From Truepera sp. (lineage in GTDB: Bacteria > Deinococcota > Deinococci > Deinococcales > Trueperaceae), in the NCBI GenBank assembly GCA_965218435.1, contig CBDCKW010000009.1, forward strand, positions 512,001-576,000: a DNA stretch of 64,000 nt. Reading direction: 5' to 3'. Below, piece by piece: positions 1 to 63,630 of the stretch. The position numbers and the translations under genes were made by a program. Position 1 is the stretch's first letter. The number at the start of each line of letters is the position of its first letter. The notes beneath the pieces were generated by a model that was given only the letters and a program-made list of their open reading frames with translations, was not told the origin of the DNA and did no database searches.

Positions 1-375
1 CGCCGGTTTGAGAGGATGATCGAACGGCGTGTTGACGCCCGTGGCGACTTCTCCGCTGTGTTACAGCGCCTCGCCGCGCTCCGCGCCCCGGCGGTCTTTT
101 TGCTCGAGGACGTCATGGTTGACACGAACCTAACCCGCGACCAGGTAATGATGACGCTGAACCTCCTCAGTGAAGCGCCCTTTCACCTCGTCAGCCGGGT
201 AGACAGCGGTGAGTTCTCTTTGCGGCAAGGTGTCTTTGAAAACTTGACGCAGCTTTCAGACTACGCGCTTTCGCTGACTGAGCGCCTGCCCGCACGCCGC
301 ACCGAACACGTACGCGGAAACGCCGCCCTCATCGAAGGATCGGCACCCACGGTCAGAAAGCCGGTGTCGTCTTAG
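1..375 (+). CDS. Hypothetical protein, probably the 3' part of a gene starting before the window
   Basis: Frame is open from base 1 (RRFERMIERR...) to TAG at 375; no clear RBS before ATG 16; no family recognised. Confidence 0.5.
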   Translation, partial: RRFERMIERRVDARGDFSAVLQRLAALRAPAVFLLEDVMVDTNLTRDQVMMTLNLLSEAPFHLVSRVDSGEFSLRQGVFENLTQLSDYALSLTERLPARRTEHVRGNAALIEGSAPTVRKPVSS

Positions 376-612
376 TCGGTTTGAGCTTGCTCGGTCTTAG
401 GTCAGTTGGACGCGTTTGCGGCACCTGAGAGAAGTCAGAAGTTGGCGGCTTGACTGAGAAACCAGTTTCGCTCACACATTTAAGGCGTAATGACATAGCA
501 TTTGTGGGATTGACACAAATATCATCCCAGAACACACGTGTTGGTCAGCGAAATCTATCTTGAGCGCGTTTCCAACCAGGTAATACCTGCCAAAAAAAGG
601 TAAACTGCGTAT

Positions 613-642
613 AAAAAAGCCCCTCAGGTGAGGGGCTTTTTT
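613..642. terminator. Bidirectional intrinsic terminator
   Basis: A6-GCCCCTC-aggt-GAGGGGC-T6 between convergent genes. Confidence 0.9.
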
Positions 643-680
643 ATGATTGTATAGGTTTGAGTACGTCGTTTAAGCGTAAC

Positions 681-1811
681 TTAGGGGCGGAAGTTAAAAC
701 CTGCGGCAACGGTCGGGTAGATGTCTTGGCTATACCCCGGAACGGTGATTGGATCGAAGTAGTAGTCGGCGGTACCTTCAACGAAGAAGGTGATCGGGCC
801 GTTGCCGAACTCTGCGCCGAGCAGCGCACCGGCAAACGGACCTTCGTTGACGCCCGAATTGAAGAGCACGTCGGCAAACTGATAACCGCCGCCGACCCCG
901 AGGTAAGCACTGACGCCGCCCGTACCGAGCGTATAGGTCAGGTGACCTGAAGTGGCGAGCGAACCGGATTGGATAAGAGACTGACGACCGTAGTCGGCTG
1001 CGGCGCGGATGCCAAAGCCGGAGACGATGTTGTCAATCCCGATTTTGACGCGGGGACGGAAACGGAGATTATCAACCGCATTGATTTCGTAAAACGAGCC
1101 GATACCGAGGTAGAACTTGCCGCGTGCGCTGCTGACGGCAACTGCCGCAGGAGCAGAGACCGGCGGCTTGACGGTGACTGCCGGTTCTTCGGGGGTCGGT
1201 GTTGGGGCAGCCGTACTCGCGCTGCCAAGTTGATTGCGGAGGTTGTTGACCTGCTTGTTAAGAGCTGTGACCTGCTCTTGCAGCGCAGTGACGTCGGGGC
1301 TGGGGGCGGTGGGTGCCGGAGCCTGCTCGAGTGCGGCGACGCGGCCTTCAAGCGCGGTCAGCGAATCGGCGAGGTTGCCTGAAGGTGCAGCCTGCTCGAG
1401 CGCGGTCACCCGTTTCGTCAATGCACTTAGGGCTTCGCCGCCTTTGGGGGCGTTCTCGAGGGCGCTAATCCGGTCGGTCAGTGAACCGAGTTGGTTTTGC
1501 AGTTCGGCAACCGCATTGTTGACTGTAGCCAAATCCTCTTCACTTAGGGCTTTGGCGGCAGCGTTGTTTTCGTCAATGACGCTGAGGAGGCGGCTGACGA
1601 CAAGCGCAGCCTGATAACGCGTGAAGGCTTCGTTGCCACGAAAGGTACCGTCCGGAAAGCCGTTGACGATCCCCAACTCGGCAAGTTGCGAGACCGCGTC
1701 GGCGGCGTAAGCGTCGGCGGGCACGTCGGGAAAGCTGTTCTGCGCGAGCGCCCCCCCTAGTGTTCCACCAAGTACAAGCACGGCGGCCGATGTAAGTAAA
1801 CCTTTTTTCAT
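681..1811 (-). CDS. SLH-domain envelope protein (SLH + coiled coil + small beta-barrel; SlpA/OmpM-like architecture)
   Basis: Signal peptide (ALA-Q); SLH motif FPDVP...GIVNGFPDGTFRG...TRYQAAL; heptad coiled coil; about 8 amphipathic C-terminal strands ending GFNFRP. Confidence 0.85.
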   Translation of the reverse strand: MKKGLLTSAAVLVLGGTLGGALAQNSFPDVPADAYAADAVSQLAELGIVNGFPDGTFRGNEAFTRYQAALVVSRLLSVIDENNAAAKALSEEDLATVNNAVAELQNQLGSLTDRISALENAPKGGEALSALTKRVTALEQAAPSGNLADSLTALEGRVAALEQAPAPTAPSPDVTALQEQVTALNKQVNNLRNQLGSASTAAPTPTPEEPAVTVKPPVSAPAAVAVSSARGKFYLGIGSFYEINAVDNLRFRPRVKIGIDNIVSGFGIRAAADYGRQSLIQSGSLATSGHLTYTLGTGGVSAYLGVGGGYQFADVLFNSGVNEGPFAGALLGAEFGNGPITFFVEGTADYYFDPITVPGYSQDIYPTVAAGFNFRP

Positions 1812-2067
1812 CTAGGACCTCTTTTCTGGTACCGAGTGTAACAGCCTCGGCCACTGCTGGGCAACACTACCGGTCTAACCGTACGGGCCTGCCGACCGAT
1901 AGTGAACTCAAAGGGTACGCTAGCAACCAGAGTACCCGCGTCACACTAACCTGCCCTACAAAAAGTATGATGAGTTCACCTTAATACCGAGCTGTCTCTA
2001 CCTTTAATAACTTCTTAAAGTCTGCTTAGAGGGTGACTTAACGCGTCAGGGACTACCGTCTTAAGCT

Positions 2068-2096
2068 AAAAAAGCGTGCGCTAGACGGCCCACGCT
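2068..2096 (-). terminator. Probable terminator of the suf operon
   Basis: AGCGTG...CACGCT stem followed by a T-run on the minus strand, just after the Rieske gene. Confidence 0.55.
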
Positions 2097-2116
2097 ATAA
2101 CTTGAACCAACCGCTG

Positions 2117-2434
2117 CTAAACTGTTTGAACCGAGACGAAGACGCGCCCGTCTCGAACCTCAGTTTGGTAAAGCTGGACTTTTTTAATCGCAGGCAGCGT
2201 CGCTTTGCCCGTTTCTAAGTTGAACTTCGCGCCGTGCCACTCGCACTTGACCGCGCCTTCTAAGAGCTCGCCGGTATGAAGTGGGTACTCGCGGTGAGTA
2301 CAGCGGTCGGCGAGCGCGTAGAACTGCCCGTCCTGATAGACGACGAGTACAGCTTCCCCCTCGACCTCTACAGAGCGCATCGAATCGTCGGGAAAGTCAC
2401 CCACAGCGCCGATATCGGTAAATGTCTCGGTCAT
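2117..2434 (-). CDS. Rieske [2Fe-2S] ferredoxin associated with suf
   Basis: CTH...CEWH Rieske ligands; last gene after sufD. Confidence 0.9.
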   Translation of the reverse strand: MTETFTDIGAVGDFPDDSMRSVEVEGEAVLVVYQDGQFYALADRCTHREYPLHTGELLEGAVKCEWHGAKFNLETGKATLPAIKKVQLYQTEVRDGRVFVSVQTV

Positions 2435-2486
2435 AAACAAGGGGACACAAGCGTTGCGTTATCGCTTGCTCGTCCGTCACTCCTTC

Positions 2487-3800
2487 CTAAAGCTTCTCGT
2501 CTACACCCGGTACCCCGAGCTTGGCCTGAACGATGCGTTCGACGTACTCGGCGACTTTGGGCAGCGTGACGCGGCTCGTAACTTCGTGCAAGAAGCCGGT
2601 GACGAGGACGTGTTCGGCGACTTCGGGCGCAAGGCCACGGCTCATCAGGTAAAACCGCTGGTCTTCAGGGACCGGCGAGGTCGTTGACCCGTGTGAACAG
2701 CGTACGTCGTTTGCGCCGATTTCTAGCTGCGGAATACTCACCGCGTCCGAGCCCGAATCGAGTAGCAGGTTGCGGTTCGTTTGGTAGGCGTCGGTCTTTT
2801 GTGCGCCCTCGTCTACTCGAATCATGCCCGAGTAAACCGCGGTCGAGCCGTCGCGCAAGGCACCCTTAAAGAGCAGGTCGCTGTGCGCGTGGTCGGCGTG
2901 GTGGTGCTGCAAGGTATACTGGTTGTAGTGCTGACCCTTGTCGGCAAAATAAAGTCCCAACATTTCAGACTCTGCGCCGGGACCGTCCATAACGCACTCG
3001 ACTTCGGCGCGGGCAGCGTCGGCCCCCAAAGAGACGGTGAGGGACTCGAGCCGACTGTTCCGGTCTAGCCGCGCTTTGATGCGGCTGATCTGCGCGACCG
3101 TCCGGCTCCAGTTTTGCAGCGACACGTAGCGCAAGTTCGCGCCGTCGCCCAAGATGATCTCGACCGACCCCGTGCTAAGGAGCCGTTCGCCGAACTCTTC
3201 AGAAGTGTATTCGTCAATAAACGTCGCTTTGGCGTTGGCACCCAGCACAATCAGCGTACGCGGCGCACTGAGGCCGCCCGCATCTGCTGAGTAAAACGCG
3301 CCTAGAGGTAGCGCAACCTCGGTATTTTTCGGCACGTATAAAAACGTCCCATTTTGCCACACCGCCGCGTTCAGCGCCGTGTATTTAGACTGCGTGGCGT
3401 TCACAACGCTGTAAAGGTACGTTTTCACGAGGTCTTCGTGCTCACGCAGCGCAGAGCGCAGGTCAGTAAAGATCACGCCTGCTTCGCTGATTTTCGAGTC
3501 GCGGTAGACAACCTCGCCGCCCTTGTAGACCAAGACGCCTTCAGCGTCGGAGTCGGTAATGCGCGTTTCGATGCGTTTAGAGACGTTGGTGTCCGCCGGC
3601 GCAGAGACGAGTTCTAAACCGTCTAACGCAAACCGCTTCATCTGCGTGTAACGCCAGTTTTCGTCGCGGTTGGTGGGAAAAGGCATCTTTTCAAAACTGC
3701 GGAGCGCCGCGCGGCGCTCGTCGGCGAGCCACGTAGGTTCATTGTTGTGCTTGACGATCCCCTCGATAACTTGGGGGGAAAGCGTTTGGGTTTGACTCAT
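2487..3800 (-). CDS. sufD: Fe-S cluster assembly protein SufD
   Basis: ENWRYT, QKTDAYQTNRNLLL, PQLEIGANDVRCSHG, FYLMSRG motifs. Confidence 0.95.
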   Translation of the reverse strand: MSQTQTLSPQVIEGIVKHNNEPTWLADERRAALRSFEKMPFPTNRDENWRYTQMKRFALDGLELVSAPADTNVSKRIETRITDSDAEGVLVYKGGEVVYRDSKISEAGVIFTDLRSALREHEDLVKTYLYSVVNATQSKYTALNAAVWQNGTFLYVPKNTEVALPLGAFYSADAGGLSAPRTLIVLGANAKATFIDEYTSEEFGERLLSTGSVEIILGDGANLRYVSLQNWSRTVAQISRIKARLDRNSRLESLTVSLGADAARAEVECVMDGPGAESEMLGLYFADKGQHYNQYTLQHHHADHAHSDLLFKGALRDGSTAVYSGMIRVDEGAQKTDAYQTNRNLLLDSGSDAVSIPQLEIGANDVRCSHGSTTSPVPEDQRFYLMSRGLAPEVAEHVLVTGFLHEVTSRVTLPKVAEYVERIVQAKLGVPGVDEKL

Positions 3801-4252
3801 AAAGTCCTTTCTTGGAGCAAAGCTTGGAGGCGGGTGGCGAGGGCGTTACGGGTAGTAAGCGGCACAATCTCGGCTTCGGGAATGCCTAAGTAATCGAAAA
3901 TGCGAGGCCCCTTTTTGTCGTCCGGCAACTCGACCATTCTTGGAATGACGTGAAAGTGAACATGCGAGTGCTCCACCTTTTCAGCAAATAAAACCGTGTA
4001 GGTTTTCACCGCGCCCGTCACCTCTTGCAGCGCCCTCGAGACACGGTGCAAAAACGGCCCAAAACTTGCAGTTTCAGCCTCGGTTAGTTCAGCAAAGCTC
4101 GCTACATGCCGCATTGAAACGACGACCAACCAACCTGGGAGTGAGGTATCAAACGCGTGAGCCACGCGCCAGTGCTCAGTTTCATAGACACGTTCACAGA
4201 GCGGTTCTTGGTGCCGGATGGCGGTGAGGTGGCAGGTCATGCAAGTTGTCAT
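3797..4252 (-). CDS. HIT family hydrolase
   Basis: N-terminal CxxC and the HVHFHVIPR histidine triad; its stop overlaps the sufD ATG. Confidence 0.9.
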   Translation of the reverse strand: MTTCMTCHLTAIRHQEPLCERVYETEHWRVAHAFDTSLPGWLVVVSMRHVASFAELTEAETASFGPFLHRVSRALQEVTGAVKTYTVLFAEKVEHSHVHFHVIPRMVELPDDKKGPRIFDYLGIPEAEIVPLTTRNALATRLQALLQERTL

Positions 4253-4261
4253 AAGAATGTC

Positions 4262-4519
4262 CTAACGTCGGTAGACATCTTTGCGGTGCGCGACTTTAAG
4301 GGCAGTAATCTCCTGCTTTGCCGCATCTACGTTGTAAACGACGCGGTAATCACCGATACGGACGCGGTAACTGGCTTCACCTACCAACTTTTTGCTAGGG
4401 ACGGCAGCGGGGTCGTTTTGCAGCTTAAGGAGTGCAGTGAGTATACGCCGCTGAACCTCAACTGGTAACGCTTGTAAATCTTTCTCCGCGCGTCTATCGA
4501 AATGGAGCGAATAGGCCAC
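4262..4519 (-). CDS. RelE/ParE family type II toxin
   Basis: 85 aa; YRVRIGDYRVVY...VAHRKDVYR RelE signature. Confidence 0.9.
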   Translation of the reverse strand: MAYSLHFDRRAEKDLQALPVEVQRRILTALLKLQNDPAAVPSKKLVGEASYRVRIGDYRVVYNVDAAKQEITALKVAHRKDVYRR

Positions 4520-4725
4520 TAAAGACCTAAACGCTCCTTCATCTCATCGAGTGAAATCGTCTCACCGTCACGTCTTTCGGCTAGAACTCGCCTGTGCCAC
4601 GCTTCCTCGAGCAACTCTTCGTACTCTTCAACGGTCAAAAGCACGTGGGTACGTTTACCCTCAGCATCCGTAAGGTAATGATGATGGTCGAGCGTGTTGT
4701 CAGGGGTTTCAAAGGTATCTGCCAT
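4519..4725 (-). CDS. Cognate antitoxin of the RelE toxin
   Basis: 68 aa, acidic (YLTDAEGKRTHVLLTVEEYEELLE...ETISLDEMKERLGL); stop overlaps the toxin start. Confidence 0.8.
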   Translation of the reverse strand: MADTFETPDNTLDHHHYLTDAEGKRTHVLLTVEEYEELLEEAWHRRVLAERRDGETISLDEMKERLGL

Positions 4726-4739
4726 AAATACTCGCCGGT

Positions 4740-6155
4740 TTAGCCGACTGACCCTTCCATCTCGAGTTCAATCAAACGGTTGAGTTCGACAGCGTACTCG
4801 AGCGGCAGTTCTTTGGCAACCGGCTCTAAAAACCCGCGAACGATCAGGGCGGCGGCTTCGGCTTGTTCCAACCCACGCGATTGCAGGTAAAAAATTTGCT
4901 CGTCGTTGAGTTTTGAAACCGACGCTTCGTGCCCGACGTGCGCCGTCTTCTCGTCAATCTGAATGTACGGATAAGTGTCCGTTTTGGCAGTGTCGTCTAG
5001 CAGCAGTGCGTCACACTCAACGTTGCTCCGGGCACCCGTCGCACCTTCATGAATCTCAACCAACCCACGGTATGAGCTGCGCCCGCCGTCTTTGGAGATA
5101 GACTTTGACACGACGCTGCTGCTCGTATGCGGCGCAGCGTGAACCATCTTCGCACCCGCGTCTTGGTGCTGCCCGTCACCGGCAAAGGCGATAGACAAAA
5201 CCTCGCCCCTTGCGCCCTCTTCCATCAGGTAGCAAGACGGGTACTTCATTGTCACCTTCGAGCCGAGGTTACCGTCGAGCCAGCCCATCGAGGCATTTTT
5301 GTAGACCAGCGCCCGCTGCGTCACGAGGTTGTAGACGTTGTGCGACCAGTTTTGAATCGTCGAGTAACGTACCTGGCTGCGCTCTTTGCAGATAATCTCG
5401 ATCACGCCCGAGTGAAACGAATCCGAGTTGTAGGTCGGGGCGGTGCAGCCTTCGATGTAGTGAAACTTCGAGCCTTCTTCACCGATAATCAGCGTCCGCT
5501 CAAACTGGCCCATGCTCTGCGCGTTGATTAAAAAGTACGCTTGCAGCGGCACCTCAACCTCGACACCTGCCGGAACGTAAACGAATGACCCACCCGACCA
5601 CGCGGCGGAGTTGACGGCGGCGAAATAGTTGTCTTCAGGTGGGACGACCGTCGCAAAGTGTTCCTTAAAAAGTTCTGGGTACTTCTGCACCGCCGAATCG
5701 GTGTCAGCGAAGATCACGCCCTTTTTCTCCCACTCTTCTTTAAGCGAGTGGTAGACCATTTCAGACTCGTACTGTGCGCCGACGCCTGCTAGGGCTTTTT
5801 GCTCAGCCTCGGGAATACCGAGTCTGCGGTAGGTTTCGCGGACCTCTTCGGGTACGTCGTCCCACGAGTTGGTTCCGGCTTTGTCTTGCGGGCGAATATA
5901 GAAGTAGATGTCGTCGAAGTTCAGGCGGCTGAGGTCGGGTCCCCACTTGGGACGGCCTTTTTTCTCGGCAATCTCGAGCGCCTTAAGCCGGAACTTGAGC
6001 ATCCATTCGGGCTCGTTTTTGTGATAAGAAATCTGCTCGATCACGCGGCGGTTAAGGCCCTTTTCAGAGCGGAAAAAGTATTCTTCGGGCAGGCTGAACT
6101 CGTACTGGCGTTCGTGCTGCATTCCTTGCAAATTGGTGCCTGATGTGTCGGCCAT
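4740..6155 (-). CDS. sufB: Fe-S cluster assembly protein SufB
   Basis: [50 protein letters not shown]. Confidence 0.97.
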
Positions 6156-6256
6156 AGTGTTGATATCTCCCTCAGTAATGCGTTGGTGTAGAGGCTGTTT
6201 TAGGTGTTTCCCGTTGAAGTGATGCGCCGCTAAGCTAAGGCTCGAGTCAATAGCCC

Positions 6257-7021
6257 TTACGCGCCGACCGCTTCTTGCTCCTCGCGGAGCCAGTCGTAAC
6301 CGCGTTCGTCAAGTTCCATCGCCAGCTCTTTGGGGCCTTCTTTAATGATTTTGCCCCGGTACATCACGTGGACTCTGTCGGGCACGATGTAGTTCAAGAG
6401 GCGCTGATAGTGCGTGATAACGAGCGCGCCGAACTCGGGGCCGCGCGCCGCGTTGACCCCTTGCGACACGACTTTAAGCGCGTCTACGTCTAAGCCCGAG
6501 TCGGTTTCGTCCAGCAGGGCGTATTTGGGCTCTAAAACCAGCAGTTGCAACACCTCACTGCGTTTCTTTTCGCCGCCGGAAAAGCCTTCGTTGAGGTAAC
6601 GCTCTAAAATGTTTTCGTCCCAGTGGAGTTCTTTAACGGCCTTTTGGACCTTGTTGTAAAAGTCCATCACACCGATTTCATCACCTTCGTTACGGCGAGC
6701 GTTAAGTGCCAACCGTAAAAAGTTCGCCATCGAGACGCCCGGCACCTCGACGGGATACTGAAACGCCAAGTAGACCCCGGCGCGGGCACGTTCGTCGGGT
6801 TCCAATTCTAAGACGCTCTCGCCGTCAATCAAAACCTCACCCTCAGTAACTTCGTAGGCCGGGTCACCGGCGATGACCTTAGAAAGCGTTGATTTACCCG
6901 AACCGTTGGGTCCCATCAGTGCGTGAACTTCGCCTTTAGGAATGACCAAATCAACGCCGCGCAGGATCGGGTCGCCGTTGATGGTGGCGTGAAGGTTACG
7001 AATTTCCAGCGTTTGACTCAT
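6257..7021 (-). CDS. sufC: Fe-S cluster assembly ATPase SufC
   Basis: [38 protein letters not shown]. Confidence 0.97.
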
Positions 7022-7071
7022 CTTGACCTCGCTTGTAATTGAGACGGTAACAGGGACTGCTCGAGCCCTTT

Positions 7072-7097
7072 TTAGGACTCATTCCGAATTAAGTATA
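7072..7097 (-). promoter_or_regulatory. suf promoter -10 (TATACT, 7092-7097) with an adjacent imperfect 17-bp palindrome, a candidate operator
   Basis: TTAGGACTCATTCCGAA at 7072-7088 is 12/17 self-complementary and covers the predicted transcription start. Confidence 0.5.
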
Positions 7098-7366
7098 CAC
7101 CGTGCGCCTATATGCGCCTAGTGTGCGGTTAGACAATCTATAGTAGTGGGGTAGGAATTAAAGCTTGGTCGGGTTGGAGACGTAGGTGAGGGATGAAAAC
7201 CGCCATTTGCAAAGAGCGTCAAATACAAGCAGCTCGAGCAAATTCATGAGCTTGTCTTCGGATACTAAAGTATCTGTGCTTGTCGCCACGCCGTAACTAT
7301 ACAAACGACCTTTTTTTCTACCGAGCTGCATAATTCCAAACAACGATTTAAGAAAGCTGCCAGAAC

Positions 7367-8299
7367 TTAGCTTGACAGTGCAGCTAACGTCTTCGCCAAG
7401 CGCATCCGGCGGAGCGCGAGTTCGTTGGGTAACACAGTTAGTGCCCGCGCGTAGGCTAACAGGTCGCGGTGTAGCCCGTAAAAAGTAAGCCGCTTTTCTT
7501 CCCACCGTGACAGTGCGCCGTAGCCCGCTAAAAAGGCGTCTCGGCAACCGTAAGCCTCGAGCTCAGGCAGCAGCGCGGCGAGGTCGGTCATGGGGTCGCT
7601 GCGGCGGGCGTCGCCAAAGTCGAGGGCGGCTACTACGTCGGCCCTCTCGAGGTCGTAGAGAAACGCGTTGAGTCCCGGATGACCGTGCGTCAGGGTAATC
7701 GGCGCGTCCCGGAGGAGCGACCGGCCCCGCGCTAGTGCTGAGACCAACTTGGGCGTATCGAGCATATAATCTTTGACCGCGAGACGTAGGGGCATCTTCC
7801 AAAGCGCGGCAAAGTCATCTTCCAAACGCACGCCGCTCGTCTCTGGGCAGGCGAGGTCTCCGGCTAGCTCAAAGCGGGTGCGGTGCAAAAAGCGTATGGC
7901 CGCGCCCCAAGCGGCGGCGATACGCTCAGACTCTGCCGAGCTGGGCTGCGGCCAAACGTCGGCTAGGGTTGGGACGTCCAGATATTGAGTGATGAGGTAA
8001 GGGTACTCGAGCCGCGTCAAACTCGTGTCGGCGCGCACGAGCGGCGTGCTAAACCCGCCTAGTAGCCCGATCGCAGCGGCGCAGCGTGCGACTCTCGGCT
8101 GGTCCGGCGCACGCTGGTTGATCCACAGCACCTGCTCCGCGCCCCCCTCGAGCTGCACATAATAGGCGGCGTCTAAAGGTTCGGCGGCGAGGCGTCGCCA
8201 TAGGCGGACCGGCGCACTAAAAACCCGCGTCAGACGTTCGGGTACATTTAGCGTACCGGCCACGCTGCGAGTCCGCTTGTGCGCTGCTAGCTGCGTCAT
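7367..8299 (-). CDS. Aminoglycoside phosphotransferase/choline kinase-like protein with a degenerate catalytic loop
   Basis: PYLITQY, LTHGHPGLNAFL, ALDFGDARRSDPMTDLA. Confidence 0.75.
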   Translation of the reverse strand: MTQLAAHKRTRSVAGTLNVPERLTRVFSAPVRLWRRLAAEPLDAAYYVQLEGGAEQVLWINQRAPDQPRVARCAAAIGLLGGFSTPLVRADTSLTRLEYPYLITQYLDVPTLADVWPQPSSAESERIAAAWGAAIRFLHRTRFELAGDLACPETSGVRLEDDFAALWKMPLRLAVKDYMLDTPKLVSALARGRSLLRDAPITLTHGHPGLNAFLYDLERADVVAALDFGDARRSDPMTDLAALLPELEAYGCRDAFLAGYGALSRWEEKRLTFYGLHRDLLAYARALTVLPNELALRRMRLAKTLAALSS

Positions 8300-8485
8300 T
8301 CGTTACCTGCTTTGTGCTGCCCGAACGTACTATACCTTTTTCAGCCCTTATTGTCAGCTACGGCTCCGGCTATAGAAACCTTAGGAATCTTGTGGAAACA
8401 CCCACGTCACCTCCTTGCCCTGACGATCAGGGTTGCAGCGCCGAAGCCCTGTGCTTTCTAGGCCCCATACGTTAGGCTCGAGGAC

Positions 8486-9736: not shown

Positions 9737-9755
9737 GCTTACTCACGCTCCAGGA

Positions 9756-10190: not shown

Positions 10191-10203
10191 ACAGGTTTTT
10201 TAA

Positions 10204-11834: not shown

Positions 11835-11845
11835 GCGCTACGTCC

Positions 11846-49048: not shown

Positions 49049-49082
49049 CGAGGCTTTAAGCTTTTACTCATTGCTCACCACT

Positions 49083-52122: not shown

Positions 52123-52124
52123 GG

Positions 52125-54814: not shown

Positions 54815-55785
54815 GGCGTCGCGTCAAGCCCCATACCCCCTTTAGCCCCTAAACCGGCCTCCAACCGGGCGTGCGCAGCCAGCGCAATCATTGCGCCGTT
54901 GTCGGTTGCGAGTGCTAAGGGCGGGACCCGCACGTCAAGCCCGGTCTTTGCAAAACGTTCGCGTAACCTCTTATTGGCCGCCACCCCACCCGCGACGACG
55001 AGCGTCTTGTAGCCCGTAGCAGCGGTGGCCCGGAGCGTCGTCTGTACGAGGCTCTCAACGACGATCTGTTCAAAACTTGCTGCCACATCTTCTTTAGGGG
55101 CGTCCGGTTGACGTTGTAACAGCACCGACACGGCGGTTTTAAGACCGCTGAATGAAAAATCAAACCCTTTTTGACCTTTGAGCGGCAGCGTAAAAGGAAA
55201 CGTGTCCGGGTCGCCGGTTTCGGCCAGACGGCCCAGCGCCGCTCCACCCGGATACCCGAGACCCAAAAGCCGCGCGGCTTTGTCAAACGCTTCCCCGGCG
55301 GCGTCGTCGCGGCTGCGGCCCAACTCTCGGTAGTCGCCCCACGCCCGCACGTCAAAAAGGCTCGTGTGCCCACCCGACGCGATGAGGCATAAAAACGGTG
55401 GTTTGGTGTCTCCTTCAGCAAGGCTCGAGGCAATGTGGCCCTCGAGGTGGTGCACCGGCACGAACGGCAAGCCCCGAGCCCAAGCCAGCCCCTTAGCGTA
55501 GGCCAGACCGACCAGCAGTGCCCCGACCAGACCGGGACCGTAGGTCGCCGCGATGTGCGTCACGTCATCCAGCGTCACCTCAGCCTCAGCCAGCGCCTGT
55601 TGAAACACAGTATCTATCACCGCCAAGTGCTCACGGCTTGCCTGCTCAGGCATCACGCCGCCGAACGCTGCGTGCAGCGCGGTTTGCGACGCGACCACGT
55701 TAGCGATAACGCGGCCACCCCGGACGACGCCGACGCCGGTATCGTCACACGAGGTGTCTATCCCTAAAATGATGCGTTCGTTCAC
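54736..55785 (-). CDS. tsaD: tRNA N6-threonylcarbamoyltransferase
   Basis: GIDTSCDDT, GPGL, HHLEGH, SGGHT, DDAAGEAFDK, TDNGAMIA. Confidence 0.96.
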   Translation of the reverse strand: MNERIILGIDTSCDDTGVGVVRGGRVIANVVASQTALHAAFGGVMPEQASREHLAVIDTVFQQALAEAEVTLDDVTHIAATYGPGLVGALLVGLAYAKGLAWARGLPFVPVHHLEGHIASSLAEGDTKPPFLCLIASGGHTSLFDVRAWGDYRELGRSRDDAAGEAFDKAARLLGLGYPGGAALGRLAETGDPDTFPFTLPLKGQKGFDFSFSGLKTAVSVLLQRQPDAPKEDVAASFEQIVVESLVQTTLRATAATGYKTLVVAGGVAANKRLRERFAKTGLDVRVPPLALATDNGAMIALAAHARLEAGLGAKGGMGLDATPYLPLSEVSGEISGEDLRSRDEIARS

Positions 55786-55838
55786 GTGGCCAGCCTAGCA
55801 TTGACGCCCCTGCAAACCCGTATTGCTAGACTTGTAGG

Positions 55839-56957
55839 GTGAGTTTTGCTAAAACCTTAAAACGCTACCATGCGTTGGAGTCTAGGTATCTAGGGTGGGC
55901 GCGTTACGCCGTCAAGCCCGGTCTGCGCGGATATCCACTCCATCCCGGCGTTGCCTTGCTGCTCGCCAAGGCCGACCTAGAGACGGGCATACTGATTGAC
56001 GCCACCGGCTCAGGTGGACTCCTCGCGCTGGCCGCAACCGCTGAGCGGAAGGTGGTGCTCGAGACTTCTAAAGCCGCCCTTCTCTGTGCCGCCTGGACCT
56101 TTACTGACTCGGGCGTGGATTCTGACACGCAGATTGTCGCCGGTGCGCCGTGGGACGCGCCCGCTGGCACGGCTGACCTTATCGCGCTCGCGCCGCCGAC
56201 CGACCGGGGGAGTAGGCGCGTCCTAGCTGAACTGGCCGGTGCGCACGCGGCGCTTAAACCGGGAGGTTCGGCCCTGATTGTCATGCACAAAGACCAGGGC
56301 GCAAAACGCTACGAAAAGGAAGCTGCAAAGCTGTTCGGTGCGCTGAGCGTGCTCGCTAAAGACGGCGGCTGGCGGCTCGTCCGGGCCAAAAAAGTTAGAG
56401 CTGAAGGGCTCGAGGTTTTCCCTTTACAGTTTTCTGTCGCCGAGCTGAACTTACAAGCCGACCCCGGTGTGTTCGCCGCCGGAAAGCTCGACCCTGGTAC
56501 GGCGCGGTTTCTGGGCGCGGTGCGGCTCTCGGAGTTCGCCGGTCAGCGGGTGCTCGAGCTCGGCTCCGGTTACGGCGTCATCGCCCTCAAAGCGTCGCTG
56601 GCCGGGGCCGCTGTCACGGCTACCGACGACGATTTGTTAGCTGTGCGCAGCACCCACCGCAACGCGGCGCACTACGGCGCGGACGTGCGCACCCTGCACT
56701 CGGACGTAGATTCCGAGTTGCAAAACGAAACTTTTGACGCCGTGCTGATGAACCCACCCTTTCACGTCGGTAAACAGGTCGTGCTGGACGTGCCGAACGC
56801 GTTTTTAGCGGCGGCGTATGAGCGGCTAAAGCCCGGTGGCACGCTGACGCTGGTGGCGAATAAGGCGCTGCCATACGAGCGGGAGCTGACAGGGTTCTCG
56901 AGCTGGCAGACACTTTTTTCAGACAATCAGTTTAAGATTTTACACGCAGTACGCTGA
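55839..56957 (+). CDS. RsmC-like class I SAM methyltransferase
   Basis: PGVFAAGKLDPGT, LELGSGYG, MNPPFH. Confidence 0.82.
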   Translation: MSFAKTLKRYHALESRYLGWARYAVKPGLRGYPLHPGVALLLAKADLETGILIDATGSGGLLALAATAERKVVLETSKAALLCAAWTFTDSGVDSDTQIVAGAPWDAPAGTADLIALAPPTDRGSRRVLAELAGAHAALKPGGSALIVMHKDQGAKRYEKEAAKLFGALSVLAKDGGWRLVRAKKVRAEGLEVFPLQFSVAELNLQADPGVFAAGKLDPGTARFLGAVRLSEFAGQRVLELGSGYGVIALKASLAGAAVTATDDDLLAVRSTHRNAAHYGADVRTLHSDVDSELQNETFDAVLMNPPFHVGKQVVLDVPNAFLAAAYERLKPGGTLTLVANKALPYERELTGFSSWQTLFSDNQFKILHAVR

Positions 56958-56967
56958 GGAGGCACAG

Positions 56968-57639
56968 ATGATCGCAAAACATCGCTCAAAAGCCTGGTAC
57001 GCAAATCTGGCCGCTGAAACTGGCGTCTACGAGTACCCGTGGACGCAGGTGCTGAGTGCGCCTAGTGGTGAAGAGCTTTTTGACGCACTGTTGGAAAACC
57101 TGCTGACGCCTGAGCTGAGGGTGCTCGAGGCCGGATGCGGTCATGGCCGAGACGCCAAACGGTACGCGCCCAGGGTTCAAAGTTATACCGGTTATGATTT
57201 CACTCCCGCTTATATTGAACGTGCTGGGAAAGATGTGCCCCAAGCCGAGTTTGTGGTGTGGGACTCGAGCCGTGAACCTCTGCCGGAGCATTTCAAAAAG
57301 CGTTTTAACTTGGTGGTTTCGCGGCGCGGCCCTACGAGTGTGATTCCGCACTTGCCGGAATTATGTGTTCCTGACGCCCAGGTTCTCTGTATCCATCCCG
57401 AAAGCGGCGCAGCACGTGTTACGGAGCGGCTGGCACAAGCAGGTTTAGAACCGGAGGCCGAGTGGCACGTCCGCGTCAGAGGATTTTTGCCGACGCAACA
57501 AGATTTCGTTGCTTATCGGCAGTTTCATGGTGATGAGCGCACTTTAGAAGAGCTTGATGCAGAGTGGGACGAGGGTAAGGAGGCTGAGGGATTTCCTCTG
57601 GAGGAGCAGCGGTATCTTTATCTGCTGCGTATGCCGTAA
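56968..57639 (+). CDS. Class I SAM-dependent methyltransferase
   Basis: VLEAGCGHG, GYDF, SRRGP. Confidence 0.82.
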   Translation: MIAKHRSKAWYANLAAETGVYEYPWTQVLSAPSGEELFDALLENLLTPELRVLEAGCGHGRDAKRYAPRVQSYTGYDFTPAYIERAGKDVPQAEFVVWDSSREPLPEHFKKRFNLVVSRRGPTSVIPHLPELCVPDAQVLCIHPESGAARVTERLAQAGLEPEAEWHVRVRGFLPTQQDFVAYRQFHGDERTLEELDAEWDEGKEAEGFPLEEQRYLYLLRMP

Positions 57640-57789
57640 TTGGCACACAGTGTTTGCTTTTAGCTGCAGTGCAGAGGTTAACAAGGTCGGTGGTTCGGGC
57701 TAAAGCTATTCGGCATCTATTAGATGTTCAGCCGTCTTTAACTAACGGCAATATAACGCACTGGTGCCAGGGCTATTCAAGCGTCTAAA

Positions 57790-58179
57790 CTACCAGCACG
57801 AGATAGGAAAAACCTTAAAAGCTGGGTCTTGACTGAGCAGGGTTACACCCTCTGGCAGCGCAGGCGCTGCCAGCATCCGGTCGAAAGAGTCTTTGTGCGG
57901 GGCCTCGAGCCTCCCTGCTAGGCGCACGTGCGAACCTCGTATCGGCAGCTCTTGTGCGCCGAGTTGGAGCAAAAACCCTTCGTAAAGCTCATCATCCAAA
58001 AAGGGTGCAACTTCGGGCCATTTGCCCAGATAGTGCTTGATGCTCATCTCCCAAATACAGACTGCGCTAATTAGCAAAGTGTTTGCCGAGTTGCTCAAAC
58101 GTAAACGTGCTGTAGCGCCAAGCCTAGTAGGGTCACCGACTGCTCAGGCGAACGTATGGGTATCAAGCAGGTAGCGCAC
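57790..58179 (-). pseudogene. vapC: VapC/PIN toxin with a nonsense codon at position 12 (58144-58146)
   Basis: Frame from GTG reads MRYLLDTHTFA*AVGDP...ISAVCIWEMSIK...HKDSFDRML. Confidence 0.85.
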
Positions 58180-58198
58180 CTAAGTATTTGTTCAGTGT

Positions 58199-58426
58199 TT
58201 ATTTGCCGTAAAACGTCGCTATAACTTCGTCGTCGGTGGGCTCGAGCAAGTTACTCTCAAAATGGATGGGATAAAAACCTAAGCTGCGCTTTTGCGGTAA
58301 GCCCAAACCGGTAAGTTTCGCTATAGGTTTGCCGTAACGAGAGATGATGATCTCTTCGCCGCTGCTGACCTGCTCGATAAGTTCAGAGAGCTGCGCTTTC
58401 ACCTCGTGCAAGTTGAGCGTCTTCAC
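58199..58426 (-). CDS. Phd/YefM-type antitoxin
   Basis: LNLHEVKAQLSELIEQVSSGEEIIISRYGKPIAKL. Confidence 0.9.
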   Translation of the reverse strand: MKTLNLHEVKAQLSELIEQVSSGEEIIISRYGKPIAKLTGLGLPQKRSLGFYPIHFESNLLEPTDDEVIATFYGK

Positions 58427-58576
58427 ATAGCCTAAACAACCTGGTCTAAAAACGCAATCTCTACAAGCGTTGATACCCTTTGCCGGGACGTAGCTCGGGC
58501 ACCCCCGCTCCTGCTAACCCCATAAAACCTCGAGCAGTTTGCCGAAGCTGACGTCGGCGTTGCCCCGGCTACCTTT

Positions 58577-60052
58577 CTAAGCGTGTCCCAACGCTGCTTT
58601 AACCTCAGCCACTTCATCCCACGGGAGCGTTTCGTGACGGCGCTCGAGCGTCGTTTCGTGCCCTTTGCCCGTAAGTAGCACCAGGTCACCCGGTTCGGCG
58701 AGGGCCAGTGCCTGCCGGATCGCTTCACGCCGGTCGGGAACGACGAAGAATGTCTTGCCTTCGCCGCCGCCGCCGCCCTTTGCACCTTCGGCGAGCTGCG
58801 CCAAGATGCTCTGCGCGTCTTCCGAACGCGAGTCCTCTTCGGTAAAAACGGCGAGGTCGGCGTTGCGGGCGGCACTCTCACCTAAAGGTATGCGTTTGCC
58901 GGGGTCACGCTCGCCGGCTGCACCGACGACGACGATCAGCCGCCCCGACACCTGGGGCCGCACGGCCTGCAGCGCCTTAGTCAGGGCCGGGGGCGTATGG
59001 GCAAAATCCACCACGACTGTAAACGGCCCCTGCTGCACGACCTGCATCCGCCCGGGAACGCCGGGGAAGGTGGCCAACCGCCGAAGCAGCACGCCGGTAG
59101 ACATGCCTGTTTCAGCCGCGGCTGCAAGTGCAGCCAGCGCGTTTAGGACGTTGTAACGCCCGACCATCGGTAACGACGCCTCAAAGCGGGCACCGCGGAG
59201 CTCGAGTAGCCACGCCAGTCTGCCGGGAAGCTCCCGCACCTCAGCTGCGCGCCACACCGCCCCGTCAGCCGTGCCGTAACTGATACTCCGCGCCGCCCGC
59301 TGCGCAAAAAAACGGTACTCCGGGTCATCAAAGTTAAGGACGCTGACGCGGGCACGGTCAATGAGCTGCAACTTAGCCTCACGGTAGGCGGCCATCGTCC
59401 CGTGAAAGTCCAGGTGTTCGGGCGTGAGGTTCGTCCACACCCCGACGTCGTAGTCCACCTCATCGAGGCGGCGCTGCGCAAACCCGTGTGAACTCGATTC
59501 GATCACGGCGTAGCGGCAGCCGGCCTCGACAAACTGTGCGAGTAATCCTTGAACGACGGGCGCTTCGGGCGTCGTAAAGTGGCCGGGAAACGTCAGCGTC
59601 TCGCCCCGGACCTTGACCCCGGCGGTTGACAAGAGCCCGGTCGGAAGCTCGGCTGAGAGCAGATGATAGAGAAGATGGGCCGTCGTGGTTTTGCCGTCGG
59701 TACCGGTTACGCCCAGCGTATAGAGTTTTTGTGAAGGGTGGTCGTACAGCGTGGCCGAGAGCTTCGCTAAGGCCACCTTATCGTCGGGCACATAGATGTA
59801 CGGGACCGCGTAAATCCAGGGAAACGTCTCTTGTTCTTGAGGCAGCGCGGTTCCGACCACGGCGACCGCGCCTTGTGAAATCGCCCGTTCCGCGAAGCGG
59901 TGACCGTCGAGTGCGCCGCCCCGCCTCGCTACAAAAACCGAGGGGATACCCGTTTCTAAGTCGCGGGTGTCTTGCGACACGCGCAGCACATCGGTGTCGG
60001 GCAGTGTTAGGCGTAACCCGAGCGCGTTACGAACCAGCTTTGAGAGCTTCAT
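58577..60052 (-). CDS. murE: UDP-MurNAc-tripeptide synthetase
   Basis: GVTGTDGKTTT, TTPE, ESSSHG, EHLDFHG, VDFAHTP, GKGHE. Confidence 0.95.
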   Translation of the reverse strand: MKLSKLVRNALGLRLTLPDTDVLRVSQDTRDLETGIPSVFVARRGGALDGHRFAERAISQGAVAVVGTALPQEQETFPWIYAVPYIYVPDDKVALAKLSATLYDHPSQKLYTLGVTGTDGKTTTAHLLYHLLSAELPTGLLSTAGVKVRGETLTFPGHFTTPEAPVVQGLLAQFVEAGCRYAVIESSSHGFAQRRLDEVDYDVGVWTNLTPEHLDFHGTMAAYREAKLQLIDRARVSVLNFDDPEYRFFAQRAARSISYGTADGAVWRAAEVRELPGRLAWLLELRGARFEASLPMVGRYNVLNALAALAAAAETGMSTGVLLRRLATFPGVPGRMQVVQQGPFTVVVDFAHTPPALTKALQAVRPQVSGRLIVVVGAAGERDPGKRIPLGESAARNADLAVFTEEDSRSEDAQSILAQLAEGAKGGGGGEGKTFFVVPDRREAIRQALALAEPGDLVLLTGKGHETTLERRHETLPWDEVAEVKAALGHA

Positions 60053-60230
60053 GCTGCCGACCTTTGACACCCCATCTGCTGCACACCTTGGTAGCTCATA
60101 GCTGTTTCACGCATCTATCTCAGCTAGTATAGTCGCCCTGTCAAAAAATATCACGAGTCGTGCCGTGTGCGGTAGCTGTCAGCCGAGTCACGTCGCTTTG
60201 ACGATGAGACGCGTGTCTCGAGCTCCCGTG

Positions 60231-60854
60231 CTAGGGCGATAAGATCGGTTCGGCGAGGTAGGGGCGTAGTCGTGCGAGCAGCTCCTCGAGAGCGGCCTCG
60301 TCGTGAACGAAGTCGAGGGCGTCGGCGTCCAGCACGACTTTGGGCGAAAGGTCGTACGCCGTAAACCAGCGTTCGTAAAGCGCCTCTAGTTGGAGCAAGT
60401 ACGCGTCTGAGAGCGCCGCCTCGTAGCTGCGCCCGCGCAGCGCGATGTGGCGGCGCAAGGTCGGCAGTGACGCCCGCAGGTAGATGAGCAGGTCGGGGGG
60501 CCGGAGCACGTCCCGGACAGCCTCAACCAGCGCGCTGTAGACGCTGAAGTCGCGGGCGTCCAGCACGCCCGTCTCGAAAAGATTACGGGCAAAGACCTCG
60601 GCGTCTTCGTAGAGTGTCCGGTCTTGAATCACGCGGCGGCCCGGATTGACCTGCGAAACGTGCTGTGCCAAACGTTTGGTTAAAAAGAACAGCTGTGAGT
60701 GAAACGCGTAACGCGGCATATCGGCGTAAAAATCGGCTAGATAGGGGTTTTCATCTACGGCTTCAAACACGGGCTCGAGTGCAAAACTCGTGGCCAAAAC
60801 CTCGGTTAAACTCGACTTCCCCGCCCCGATATTGCCAGCTACGGCGACAAACAT
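60231..60854 (-). CDS. Deoxynucleoside kinase
   Basis: GNIGAGKSS, NPYLADFY, QDRTLYED, RGRSYE. Confidence 0.93.
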   Translation of the reverse strand: MFVAVAGNIGAGKSSLTEVLATSFALEPVFEAVDENPYLADFYADMPRYAFHSQLFFLTKRLAQHVSQVNPGRRVIQDRTLYEDAEVFARNLFETGVLDARDFSVYSALVEAVRDVLRPPDLLIYLRASLPTLRRHIALRGRSYEAALSDAYLLQLEALYERWFTAYDLSPKVVLDADALDFVHDEAALEELLARLRPYLAEPILSP

Positions 60855-60867
60855 CAAAGGGTCCGCA

Positions 60868-61470
60868 TCAGGCCACCTGAACGCGGCGAAGAACGTCAGC
60901 CAAAACCTTTTCGCGGTCGCTTGTAGACCCTACAAAATCGTACTCGGCGGCCTCGAGCACCAAAAGCGGCGCGTCGTAGGTTTCAAAAAAGCGGTCGTAG
61001 GCGCTGCTCAGGCGCTCTAGATAGTCCGCTTCAATCGCCCGTTCAAAGGGCCGTCCCCGCTGCGCGATACGCTGCAAAAGCAGTTCCGGCGACGCCCGCA
61101 GATAGACCGTCAGGTCGGGACGTGGGGCCTTCGGGCTCAGCTGCGCGTAAAGGGTCTCGTAAAGCCGCCACTCGTCGCCTTTGAGGTTAAGTGAAGCGAA
61201 GATAAAGTCTTTGTCGAAGAGATAGTCAGATACGGTTGCGTCGTAAAAAAGTGAGCCCTGCACTAGTTCTTGGAGCTGCTTGTAGCGCGAGAGCAAAAAA
61301 AACGTCTGGGCGCTTAAGGCGTAGCGGTTGGGGTCGCCGTAAAACCCGGCTAAAAAGGGATTTTCTGTGGCAACCTCGAGCACCAGCCGCGCCCCGAGTT
61401 CGGCGGCTAACAAGCGGCTCAAACTGGTTTTTCCGGCTCCTATCGGGCCTTCGGTAACGATAAGTGGCAT
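60868..61470 (-). CDS. Deoxynucleoside kinase (second of a tandem pair)
   Basis: EGPIGAGKTS, SDYLFDKD, RGRPFE; RBS GGAGGA before ATG 61470. Confidence 0.93.
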   Translation of the reverse strand: MPLIVTEGPIGAGKTSLSRLLAAELGARLVLEVATENPFLAGFYGDPNRYALSAQTFFLLSRYKQLQELVQGSLFYDATVSDYLFDKDFIFASLNLKGDEWRLYETLYAQLSPKAPRPDLTVYLRASPELLLQRIAQRGRPFERAIEADYLERLSSAYDRFFETYDAPLLVLEAAEYDFVGSTSDREKVLADVLRRVQVA

Positions 61471-61709
61471 GACGTACTCCTCCGTAAAATAGGGTTGGTT
61501 CTTTAGGAGATAACGGGTCAAACGCGACAAGCGTCCCAAGTATACCCGGCTCGGCGTGTACTCCTGCGCGGTTCGTTTTTACAGCTGGATTTTGGGAAAG
61601 CTGAAGGTGAAAGTCTTCACTTCGGCGCAGCGCTTAAGCCGGAGTTAAGTTTTACGCGCTTTACTAACCGAACTTTCCCTCTAATAGAGGTCTAAAAAGG
61701 CGGTGGCAG

Positions 61710-62165
61710 GTGGACAGCGTACAGTACCGGGCGGTTAGCGCCGCACCCTCTGCGCGTCAGTGCGCTCGGCTCGCCGCCGCGCTCGGTGTCGAGCGGCGCA
61801 CGCTGGCGCAAGTCTTAGCCGGAGCGCAGCACAACCTGTACCACCTTCGCACTATGACGCTCGCCGACTTAGGGGCGCTCAACGTTACGCTCCGCGACGC
61901 TGAGCGCATCTTTTATCTAGTGCAGTGGGAACGGCTACAGGCCCACCTCGAGCAGTGCGAAACGCTTCCGCAAGAGGATTTGGGGCCACTTTTAGAAACG
62001 CTTACCCCGATTTTTGACCGGCACTTCAGCCGTAACATCCGCTTAAACGAAACGCTTTTGGCGCTCTACCGCACCGAATTCGGGACTCGTAAAGCTGTGC
62101 GCCCGAGCCCGCTGCCTTCCTCTCCGACGCGGCGGTTTTTACACTGGTTAAGTTTTTATCTGTAG
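61710..62165 (+). CDS. Hypothetical protein
   Basis: 151-aa ORF filling the gap, with host-like codons. Confidence 0.55.
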   Translation: MDSVQYRAVSAAPSARQCARLAAALGVERRTLAQVLAGAQHNLYHLRTMTLADLGALNVTLRDAERIFYLVQWERLQAHLEQCETLPQEDLGPLLETLTPIFDRHFSRNIRLNETLLALYRTEFGTRKAVRPSPLPSSPTRRFLHWLSFYL

Positions 62166-62241
62166 TAGGATAATCTGGTTTGAGACGGCCTTCTAAGGGT
62201 ACCGGGCAGCTCGACCTCAGTTGCTTGGCTTAAACCCACAG

Positions 62242-62270
62242 TTGACAAGCCTCTCCGACCCGGCTACTCT
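62242..62270 (+). promoter_or_regulatory. Sigma70-type promoter
   Basis: TTGACA-N17-TACTCT. Confidence 0.8.
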
Positions 62271-62279
62271 GAACGCATC

Positions 62280-62297
62280 ATGATAACCACCGCCTAA
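62280..62297 (+). other. Candidate leader peptide MITTA*
   Basis: ATG 9 nt after the -10; its 3' end is complementary to the MFS ribosome-binding region. Confidence 0.55.
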
Positions 62298-62415
62298 CTT
62301 AAGCGACCTCGAGCCATTTACAACTTATTGACATCATTTACAGCTGTAGCGCGGCGATGTGCCCGCGTCTTGGCAAAGCTGGGGTGTAGACCTCATCTTA
62401 GTTGGGCGGTACATT

Positions 62416-63630
62416 TTGTCTCCACGTTTGCAGTTTCCTCTGTCGTCTTACACCGTCTATCTCGTCTTGGCAGGGGCAACGGCTTTTTCCTTGACGGTTT
62501 TCGGTACCTTGTCGTCGGTTTACCGGCTTCAAACAGCCGGCCTGAGTCCGTTTCAACTCGTGCTGATCGGGACGGTGCTCGAGCTGAGCGTTTTTGTCTT
62601 CGAGGTGCCGACCGGTATCGTCGCCGACCTTTACAGCCGCCGCCGCTCAGTGATTATCGGCATGTTTTTGATTGGCGCGGGGTTTGTGCTCGAGGGCCTC
62701 TTGCCGGTATTCGCCACCATGCTCGTCGCGCAGGTCATCTGGGGCGTCGGCGCAACCTTCGAGAGCGGCGCAACCGAAGCCTGGATCGCCGACGAACTCG
62801 GCGCGGAACGGGTTGGCGCAGCATATCTTCGGGCGGTACAGGTCGGACAACTTGCCTCACTCGGTGGGATTGCCGTCGCCGTGGCCCTCGGCAGCATCTA
62901 CCTCGGGTTACCGCTCGTCGTCGGTGGGGTCGGCTTTTTCATGGTTGGTATGTTCTTGCTGCGCTTTATGCGCGAACACGGCTTTAGCCCTGCAGACAGA
63001 ACCGCTCACCCACTCGCTGCGATGGGGGAGACGCTGCAGAAGGGTCTGACCCTCGTCCGGCGAAACTCAACCTTGCTTACAATTCTCGTCATTACCGGCA
63101 TTTTAGGCGCGTCGTCGGAAACGTTCGACCGGCTCTGGGAGGCGCGTGTGTTACGACTCGGCCTGCCCGGTTTGGACGCACTTCCCGATATAGCTTGGTT
63201 CGGTCTGATCAGCGCCGGGGCGATGCTGTTGGCCTTGCTCGCCACCGAAGGGGTACGGCGCTACACAGACCGAGGCCCGCGTTTTACGGTGAAACTGCTC
63301 GCGGGTATCAGCACCTTGCTGATGCTGAGCGTCATTGGCTTTGGTCTAGCCGGTAATTTCGCGGTAGCTCTGGCTTTTTACTGGGCGTCGTACCTGCTGA
63401 GGCGGGTGAACGCACCCCTTTTTGCGGCGTGGCTGAACGGGTACTTGGAGCCTCAAACTCGAGCCACCGTTTTCTCGCTCAACAGCCAGACCGACGCGCT
63501 CGGGCAGATTGCCGGGGGGCCACTTTTGGGTCTTTTGGCTAATGTGTCGCTACGCGGTGCGTTCGGGGCAGCCGGGGTGTTGCTGCTTCCGGCGGTGCTC
63601 CTCTACTGGCGACTGTTGCATAAGACTTAG
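62416..63630 (+). CDS. MFS efflux transporter, TetA(P)/Tet(40)-like
   Basis: LSPFQLVLIGTVLELSVFVFEVPTGIVADLYSRRRSVIIG...AQVIWGVGATFESGATEAWIADE resembles TetA(P) as recalled; TTG start inferred. Confidence 0.85.
   Translation: MSPRLQFPLSSYTVYLVLAGATAFSLTVFGTLSSVYRLQTAGLSPFQLVLIGTVLELSVFVFEVPTGIVADLYSRRRSVIIGMFLIGAGFVLEGLLPVFATMLVAQVIWGVGATFESGATEAWIADELGAERVGAAYLRAVQVGQLASLGGIAVAVALGSIYLGLPLVVGGVGFFMVGMFLLRFMREHGFSPADRTAHPLAAMGETLQKGLTLVRRNSTLLTILVITGILGASSETFDRLWEARVLRLGLPGLDALPDIAWFGLISAGAMLLALLATEGVRRYTDRGPRFTVKLLAGISTLLMLSVIGFGLAGNFAVALAFYWASYLLRRVNAPLFAAWLNGYLEPQTRATVFSLNSQTDALGQIAGGPLLGLLANVSLRGAFGAAGVLLLPAVLLYWRLLHKT

Follow-up and report, generated by a model that had tools for sequence, protein, structure and literature searches.

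In cyanobacteria, HIP1 (GCGATCGC) and alternate highly iterated palindromes (HIPs) are hyper-abundant, occur in all reading frames as well as between genes, and are conserved (PMC4390886, PMC5861425). The function of such palindromes has been unproven since HIP1 was described. Chi, which is also a short over-represented chromosomal word, is AGCGG for AddAB of Bacillus subtilis and GCTGGTGG for RecBCD of Escherichia coli (PMC5101192, PMC3784561, PMC3321194, PMC4614115). The DNA uptake sequences (DUS/USS) of Neisseria and Pasteurellaceae are likewise abundant in competent hosts and alter proteins. Here, the palindrome CTCGAG is described in a stretch of 64,000 nucleotides from Truepera sp. (positions 512001-576000 of contig CBDCKW010000009.1, hereafter C9; this whole stretch is called the window), in the 4.81-Mb genome under study (G000), and in related genomes, and what is new is the proposal of AddAB as its likely reader. 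A literature search, whose coverage excluded subscription journals and REBASE, found no description of a CTCGAG excess or of a Chi site in Deinococcota.

Excess, reading frames and conservation of CTCGAG

The window contains 128 dispersed copies of CTCGAG (2.0/kb), which have no strand and are spread over positions 103..63929, in every reading frame as well as in intergenic DNA. In 100 dinucleotide shuffles of the window, the mean was 20.75 copies and the maximum was 36, in agreement with the tally of about 120 sites against about 20 expected given in the initial annotation, all eight example positions of which are among the counted sites. The start of the extent reported there (103..63463) is correct, while its end falls short of the last site, at 63924. 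Genome-wide, 9,883 copies were counted (2.06/kb, or about one per 490 bases). The observed/expected ratio (O/E) was 6.7, 6.1, 5.2, 3.4, and 1.2 at Markov orders 0-4, respectively, the expectation at orders 3-4 being inflated by sub-words of CTCGAG itself, and it was 7.5 once the motif had been masked from Markov training. With a span of 5.2-8.3, the ratio is far from 1 in the genome-wide, Markov-corrected hexamer counting that had been suggested as a check, and the excess is confirmed as a real, genome-wide, HIP1-like mark. Among the 64 hexamer palindromes (order 2), only CTCGAG exceeds 1.13, the majority being depleted, and the HIP1 core CGATCG has an O/E of 0.15. Several other palindromes are extremely avoided, such as GGCGCC (0.02), GGGCCC (0.03), TTTAAA (0.04), and AGGCCT (0.07). 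With regard to flanking bases, G is preferred on the 5′ side and C on the 3′ side, yielding the octamer GCTCGAGC.

CTCGAG resembles HIP1 and its alternates in being a hyper-abundant, conserved palindrome of all frames and intergenic DNA, in its preferred octamer with GC ends, and in the frequent presence of an orphan methylase. On the other hand, it belongs to another phylum, has another sequence with a six-base core, and shows an O/E of 5-8 in G000 compared with 15-300 for HIP1 (the HIP-type level was taken as above about 15). In addition, the modification known in relatives is N6-methyladenine (m6A) rather than the G-meC of Elhai's model, and the candidate methylases belong to three unrelated families.

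Reading frames were assigned from our own gene calls on G000, which missed some genes (such as ORF 42379-43353), and codon usage was controlled for by 10 synonymous shuffles within each of 4,084 genes. CTCGAG was observed 6,342 times in frame 0, 506 times in frame 1, and 1,310 times in frame 2, against 2,008, 76, and 256 in the shuffles (3.2-, 6.7-, and 5.1-fold), and its intergenic O/E was 5.9. A Leu-Glu or codon-pair artefact is ruled out by this per-frame excess of 3.2-6.7-fold. Both the occurrence of the motif in all frames and between genes and its independence of a dipeptide effect, as originally asserted, are borne out, each class being above its synonymous-shuffle or background expectation. 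Leu-Glu pairs are spelled CTC-GAG in 53% of cases in G000. In the window, 86, 5, and 14 sites fall in frames 0, 1, and 2, respectively, and 23 lie outside called genes. Of the frame examples given earlier, GCT-CGA-GTC at 43232..43237 (+ strand, frame 1, in the esterase-like ORF 42379-43353) and GCC-TCG-AGC at 50502..50507 (+ strand, frame 2, in the PEGA-domain ORF 50035-51297) hold, while the gene call around 43632, where the site is in frame 1, is short and uncertain.

The proposed comparison of orthologues revealed that CTCGAG is kept beyond codon conservation in frames 0 and 2 and in non-coding DNA, the frame-1 signal being weak. Relative to G005 (299 orthologues, unchanged amino acids), CTC was conserved in 82% of cases inside the motif and 59% outside it, and GAG in 95% and 60% (odds ratio 13.8); relative to G004, 260 of 319 motif pairs were retained. 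Non-coding sites were kept in 17/37 and 18/34 cases (46-53%), compared with 25-27% for background hexamers. No halo of reduced synonymous divergence was detected more than 10 bp from the sites, and a repair halo was accordingly discarded.

The density of CTCGAG is flat over C9. Neither the GC-skew minimum, by which the origin was placed, nor any other part of C9 has a cluster (the densest 1 kb has 8 sites), so that the origin cluster of a Dam/CcrM-type mark is missing. In Nocardia, the same motif clusters at oriC; the passages available from that paper concern these origin clusters and not a genome-wide excess in Deinococcota (PMC4752239). The sites in G000 also repel each other: Leu-Glu was written CTCGAG in 51% of cases at 25-100 bp from another site and in 60% at distances of at least 200 bp, an effect matched in 0 of 1,000 permutations, and a comparable steady rise with distance was absent in six control codon pairs. 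Moreover, the spread is very even (variance/mean 0.88-1.1, the lowest among 17 abundant hexamers), short-range repulsion extends over ~70 bp in G028, and a simple periodogram over 10-90 kb, the HIP-type range, indicated a weak 72-kb periodicity (p 0.044).

Such an even spread, together with the footprint-like short-range repulsion, the conservation, and the weak periodicity, could be produced by a chromosome-organising protein that binds CTCGAG, as in the reading of HIP1 by Xu et al., and that was lost in Deinococcus. However, no candidate protein is at hand, the periodicity is marginal, the density ranges from 0.6 to 6.5/kb, and it is higher in small plasmids and in a Thermus phage than in the respective host or genus, so that an organising protein appears unlikely.

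Like Chi, CTCGAG is more frequent in the resident DNA than in recent acquisitions: six multi-copy IS-like genes of G000 contain 0 copies in 5.3 kb, and the fraction of Leu-Glu pairs spelled as the motif is 0.29-0.44 in low-GC3 genes compared with 0.54 overall. The small plasmids C6 and C8 of G000 carry 5.0 and 3.25 copies/kb, respectively, which is above the chromosome. These contigs repeat a unit of 13.0 kb or 10.5 kb and thus represent small plasmids assembled for more than one round.

Distribution across the order and AddAB

CTCGAG, CTCCAG, and CTCGAC were counted in 201 genomes of the order, whose taxon labels were inferred (f2, a Deinococcus-like family of 58 genomes; g23, a Thermus-like group of 30). 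CTCGAG reached at least 0.63/kb in 141 of the 143 non-f2 genomes and at most 0.27/kb in all 58 f2 genomes. The most extreme lineage is family f5 (12 genomes; 4.3-6.5/kb), in whose proteins Leu-Glu is doubled (O/E 2.07 vs. 1.15; 63 orthologue pairs). In one member of this family (G028, 398 kb sampled), the masked O/E was 77 at a density of 6.2/kb. In the same sample (L263-L282), CCTCGAGG is nearly absent, with only 1.1% of sites, and transition neighbours of CTCGAG are enriched 1.75-2.65-fold. The 30 sampled g23 genomes have 6-66 CTCGAC per strand vs. 1,455-2,803 CTCGAG, and in one of them (G095, 360 kb), 386 of 413 TCGA fall within CTCGAG, g23 being otherwise almost entirely purged of TCGA.

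These g23 genomes, together with the high-GC genomes of f1, in which CTCGAG is near or below codon expectation, would fit an absence of function, the palindrome having been spared from restriction avoidance by old methylation, in combination with Leu-Glu codon habits. For g23 such an account is possible. It is already refuted for G000 and f5, as it cannot yield the 3-7-fold per-frame excess of the former, the 77-fold excess of G028 with its altered proteins, or the conservation and repulsion of sites, and as a general explanation it is very improbable.

The addB (C9:3363359-3365677) and addA (C9:3359875-3362589) genes of G000 lie outside the window and are separated by a metallophosphoesterase gene (L292:8586-9398). 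At a cut-off of E<=1e-50, which was picked after the gap was visible, an AddA orthologue was present in 140 of the 143 non-f2 genomes and in 0 of the 58 f2 genomes, and AddB was found in 30 of 32 non-f2 and 0 of 5 f2 genomes searched. The presence of CTCGAG across the order tracks AddAB better than it tracks any methylase. One of the two low non-f2 genomes, G007 (Trueperaceae), lacks both AddA and AddB, and 22 CTCGAG in the coding DNA sampled from it compare with an expectation of 19.9. The other, G140 (28 vs. 26.2, likewise in a sample of coding DNA), has an AddB with changes in motif II and in the L-P of motif Ia, which is invariant elsewhere. G177, a fragmented assembly, lacks AddA only. 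AddAB components also occur on smaller replicons, with an AddB homologue on an Oceanithermus plasmid (NC_014753.1 53802-56108) and a second AddA on a small contig of G045 (G045:C2:51136-53775). As another correlate, NucS was tried and rejected, being found in one f2 and one f5 genome and missing from two enriched genomes.

When a structure model of G000 AddB (pLDDT 85) was compared with the PDB, the five best matches were all to AddB of B. subtilis (E ~1e-25). In the B. subtilis protein, Chi is read by residues of motifs Ia, Ib, and II (PMC3321194, PMC4614115). These three motifs are conserved order-wide as L-P-x-Q-R, Q68, and D-G-F/Y-R, with residues that differ from those of B. subtilis. It was also reported that Deinococcus lacks addAB and that AddAB of Thermus thermophilus degrades incoming DNA and strongly limits it (transformation ~100-fold); no Chi sequence for this enzyme is named in the parts of these papers that were available (PMC9751324, PMC11143384).

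Our favoured and still tentative reading of these sequence comparisons, which we rate somewhat below an even chance, is that CTCGAG serves AddAB of Deinococcota as a palindromic Chi and that the methylases protect it in a secondary role. AddAB would degrade a broken or incoming end until CTCGAG is met on either strand and would then switch to recombination, AddB being the predicted reader of the motif. Fragments or chromosome copies bearing CTCGAG would survive resection and be copied, with biased conversion in transformation and repair; because DNA with sites survives and is copied, sites would accumulate, and selection may also build them up. The gain from a new site would be smaller beside an existing one, which may give rise to the repulsion. 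Plasmids and some phages would copy CTCGAG to escape AddAB, while CTCGAG/TCGA methylases, repeatedly left by restriction systems, may be kept as a shield of thousands of sites from XhoI/TaqI-type enzymes. The history that goes with this may, with somewhat less than even probability, be one in which AddAB reads CTCGAG both ways, the motif was abandoned upon the loss of AddAB in Deinococcus, plasmids and phages copied it, and conversion drive raised it to one per 160 bases in a single lineage, with proteins rewritten. Among the roles that the initial annotation had offered, recombination is favoured, whereas methylation and uptake are weakened.

The likeness to Chi consists of a short over-represented chromosomal word, a host (G000 included) that encodes AddAB, scarcity in recent arrivals, variability among phages, and the retention of the Chi-reading motifs of AddB; the unlikeness, of a perfect palindrome without strand polarity or GxGG core, densities of up to 6/kb, and a recognition that is predicted. 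If the AddAB reading is right, a highly iterated palindrome would have a known reader and could serve as a model for the HIP1 question, the motif, its enzyme, and a host amenable to experiments (Thermus) all being named. This would also account for a signature that spans the order but was lost in Deinococcus, and Thermus and its relatives could perhaps be transformed more efficiently with DNA to which XhoI sites have been added. A two-way Chi would also suit genomes without gene-strand bias, and C9 of G000 has no such bias (49% leading). If it is wrong, the excess stays a real, conserved, and unexplained mark with a mapped distribution. The most skewed hexamer on C9 is GGGGAG, which we take to be KOPS-like.

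Several points weigh against AddAB as the reader. Known Chi sites are non-palindromic and strand-polarised, whereas CTCGAG is a palindrome, and none of its flank variants has a replichore bias (strand split 0.485-0.512, with replichores taken from GC skew). Known Chi sites are also G-rich with a 3′ GxGG core (PMC3321194, PMC4614115), and the base following CTCGAG is mostly C. Because it is palindromic and lacks the GxGG core, CTCGAG is not filed as a proven member of the Chi class. AddAB is not sufficient for the excess, which is uneven within f1: the combined ratio is below 2 in 32 of 59 genomes, in many of which CTCGAG is no commoner than CTCGAC, and a strong excess is found in 23 of 34 f1 genomes with a methylase vs. 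4 of 25 without one (kin not being independent). G104 lacks AddA and AddB yet has 1.1 CTCGAG/kb, and G007 is also small and without ComEC. The co-distribution reflects mainly one evolutionary loss, that in f2, and other losses there fit equally. In the coding DNA of G095, 209 CTCGAG compare with a codon-shuffle expectation of 407, so that the motif is spared rather than enriched, a sparing that could go back to a CTCGAG methylase that once protected it. Whole frame-1 hexamers are poorly conserved in G000 orthologues (7/23 and 4/32, small numbers). As for AddB, residues were mapped onto the B. subtilis protein by motif spacing, and a profile search gave no match from which to align it to a solved AddB.

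Alternatively, CTCGAG might be a DNA uptake sequence accumulated by molecular drive. Like DUS/USS, it is abundant in a competent host and alters proteins, as indicated by the doubled Leu-Glu in f5; a type IV pilus operon, pilM-N-O-(unannotated ORF)-Q, lies in the window (13044..18454, - strand), ComEC is encoded by G000, and the excess is absent from G007, which has no ComEC either. However, known uptake sequences have 9-12 bases, unlike a short, six-base palindrome, and one f2 genome has ComEC but only 0.03 CTCGAG/kb. In addition, DNA uptake by T. thermophilus, a studied relative, proceeds without apparent specificity according to the part of the source available (PMC6561018). These two genomic and experimental points weaken the uptake role suggested at first, which we regard as improbable. 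Under the AddAB reading, the pilus would instead be a route for outside DNA to the enzyme.

Five phages, with mostly unannotated genes, were sampled. MMP17 and phiMa are rich in CTCGAG (2.6 and 2.3/kb), whereas 6 copies were counted in the 50 kb of P23-45, a phage with a gene for a RecB-family exonuclease; variable motif content of this kind is similar to that of Chi in lambdoid phages (PMC3784561). In Riverbug and IN93, TCGA occurs almost only within CTCGAG (23/25 and 4/4, respectively), but the density of CTCGAG in these two is not above expectation, which also speaks against the AddAB reading. In the Thermus phage P23-45 (L328), CTGCAG is over-represented (O/E 5.3) while CTCGAG is avoided.

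Methylases of CTCGAG and related sites

The initial annotation had proposed a search for an orphan XhoI/PaeR7I-type methyltransferase. An orphan N6 adenine methylase was indeed found in G000, in a housekeeping operon outside the window (C9:3672240-3673934; L014:4241-5935), but this candidate is not of the XhoI/PaeR7I type. An XhoI-type system in G000 was rejected, as a tblastn search with a protein verified to be of the XhoI family gave no hit and a P-type methylase was absent; a Pfam search, run with no control, was blank as well. Orthologues of the G000 enzyme occur in 30 of 59 f1 and 14 of 18 g26 genomes, the remaining 4 of 18 g26 genomes carry an XhoI/PaeR7I-family enzyme, and an M.TaqI orthologue is present in all 30 sampled g23 genomes, so that the candidate methylases fall in three unrelated families. 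None of the three was detected in 12 f5, 4 g45, or 13 of 15 f3 genomes.

A nuclease-like partner accompanies the G000-type methylase elsewhere and has been lost in G000 but kept at the same locus in G005, where an intact 222-aa gene lies behind the methylase (L023:866-1534). Such a partner is present in 69 of 160 clustered loci and has only a weak PADLOC match (REase_II). The specificity of the G000 enzyme was sought through site avoidance at 72 non-Deinococcota homologues, without signal; the outlier in the pooled count, locus L158, titled Myxococcota, has 45 CTCGAG vs. 8.3 expected and is either mis-binned or from another lineage with an excess.

In related organisms, methylation of CTCGAG is real. 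Active orphan m6A CTCGAG methylases (M.Mru1279II, M.Mch9957IV, and M.Mhy14884I) have been reported in Meiothermus ruber, M. chliarophilus, and Marinithermus, with 94-99.5% of sites methylated in these three Deinococcota (PMC4752239, supplements S3/S4). For M. (A.) silvanus, 5 methylation motifs are listed in the part of that source available, and CTCGAG is not among them (PMC4752239); the CTCGAG excess on the silvanus plasmids is 2.4-3.1-fold.

Such enzymes could drive an Elhai-type ratchet: CTCGAG would be marked by an orphan m6A methylase, mismatch repair would take its direction from the mark, and new sites would become fixed until little DNA is far from one. The saturation of such a ratchet predicts site repulsion (PMC4390886, section 3.4). 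All 18 g26 genomes have an enzyme of the G000 type (14) or the XhoI type (4), and the G000 methylase has lost the nuclease partner that G005 retains, both of which agree with the ratchet. However, three f5 genomes examined at 6 sites/kb share no close methylase, the three families are missing from the f5, g45, and most f3 genomes mentioned above, silvanus has excess on its plasmids with no CTCGAG among its motifs, and hosts of TaqI-type enzymes keep only CTCGAG among TCGA sites and have not accumulated the others. Synonymous divergence is also not lowered more than 10 bp from the sites, and outside Deinococcota the hosts of the G000-type enzyme, itself a candidate, show a CTCGAG O/E of 0.84-1.17 and hence no excess. 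Since f5, g45, and most f3 genomes lack the three families and the silvanus plasmids have an excess, methylation does not look necessary for the CTCGAG excess; as its cause it is weakened, and the ratchet is, on balance, on the unlikely side.

Other features near the window

A methylase just past the end of the window (C9:575747; L013:3747-7360) was considered as the writer of the mark and rejected, since it belongs to a type I-like restriction locus in which HsdR-N is fused to the N6 methylase and an S subunit comes next. Within the window, an isolated Type ISP C-terminal specificity fragment, remnant-like, lies beside a small nucleotidyltransferase gene at 46213-47088. At 62359-63630, a TetA(P)-like MFS transporter is encoded, with a score of 287 bits, under the cut-off of 750.

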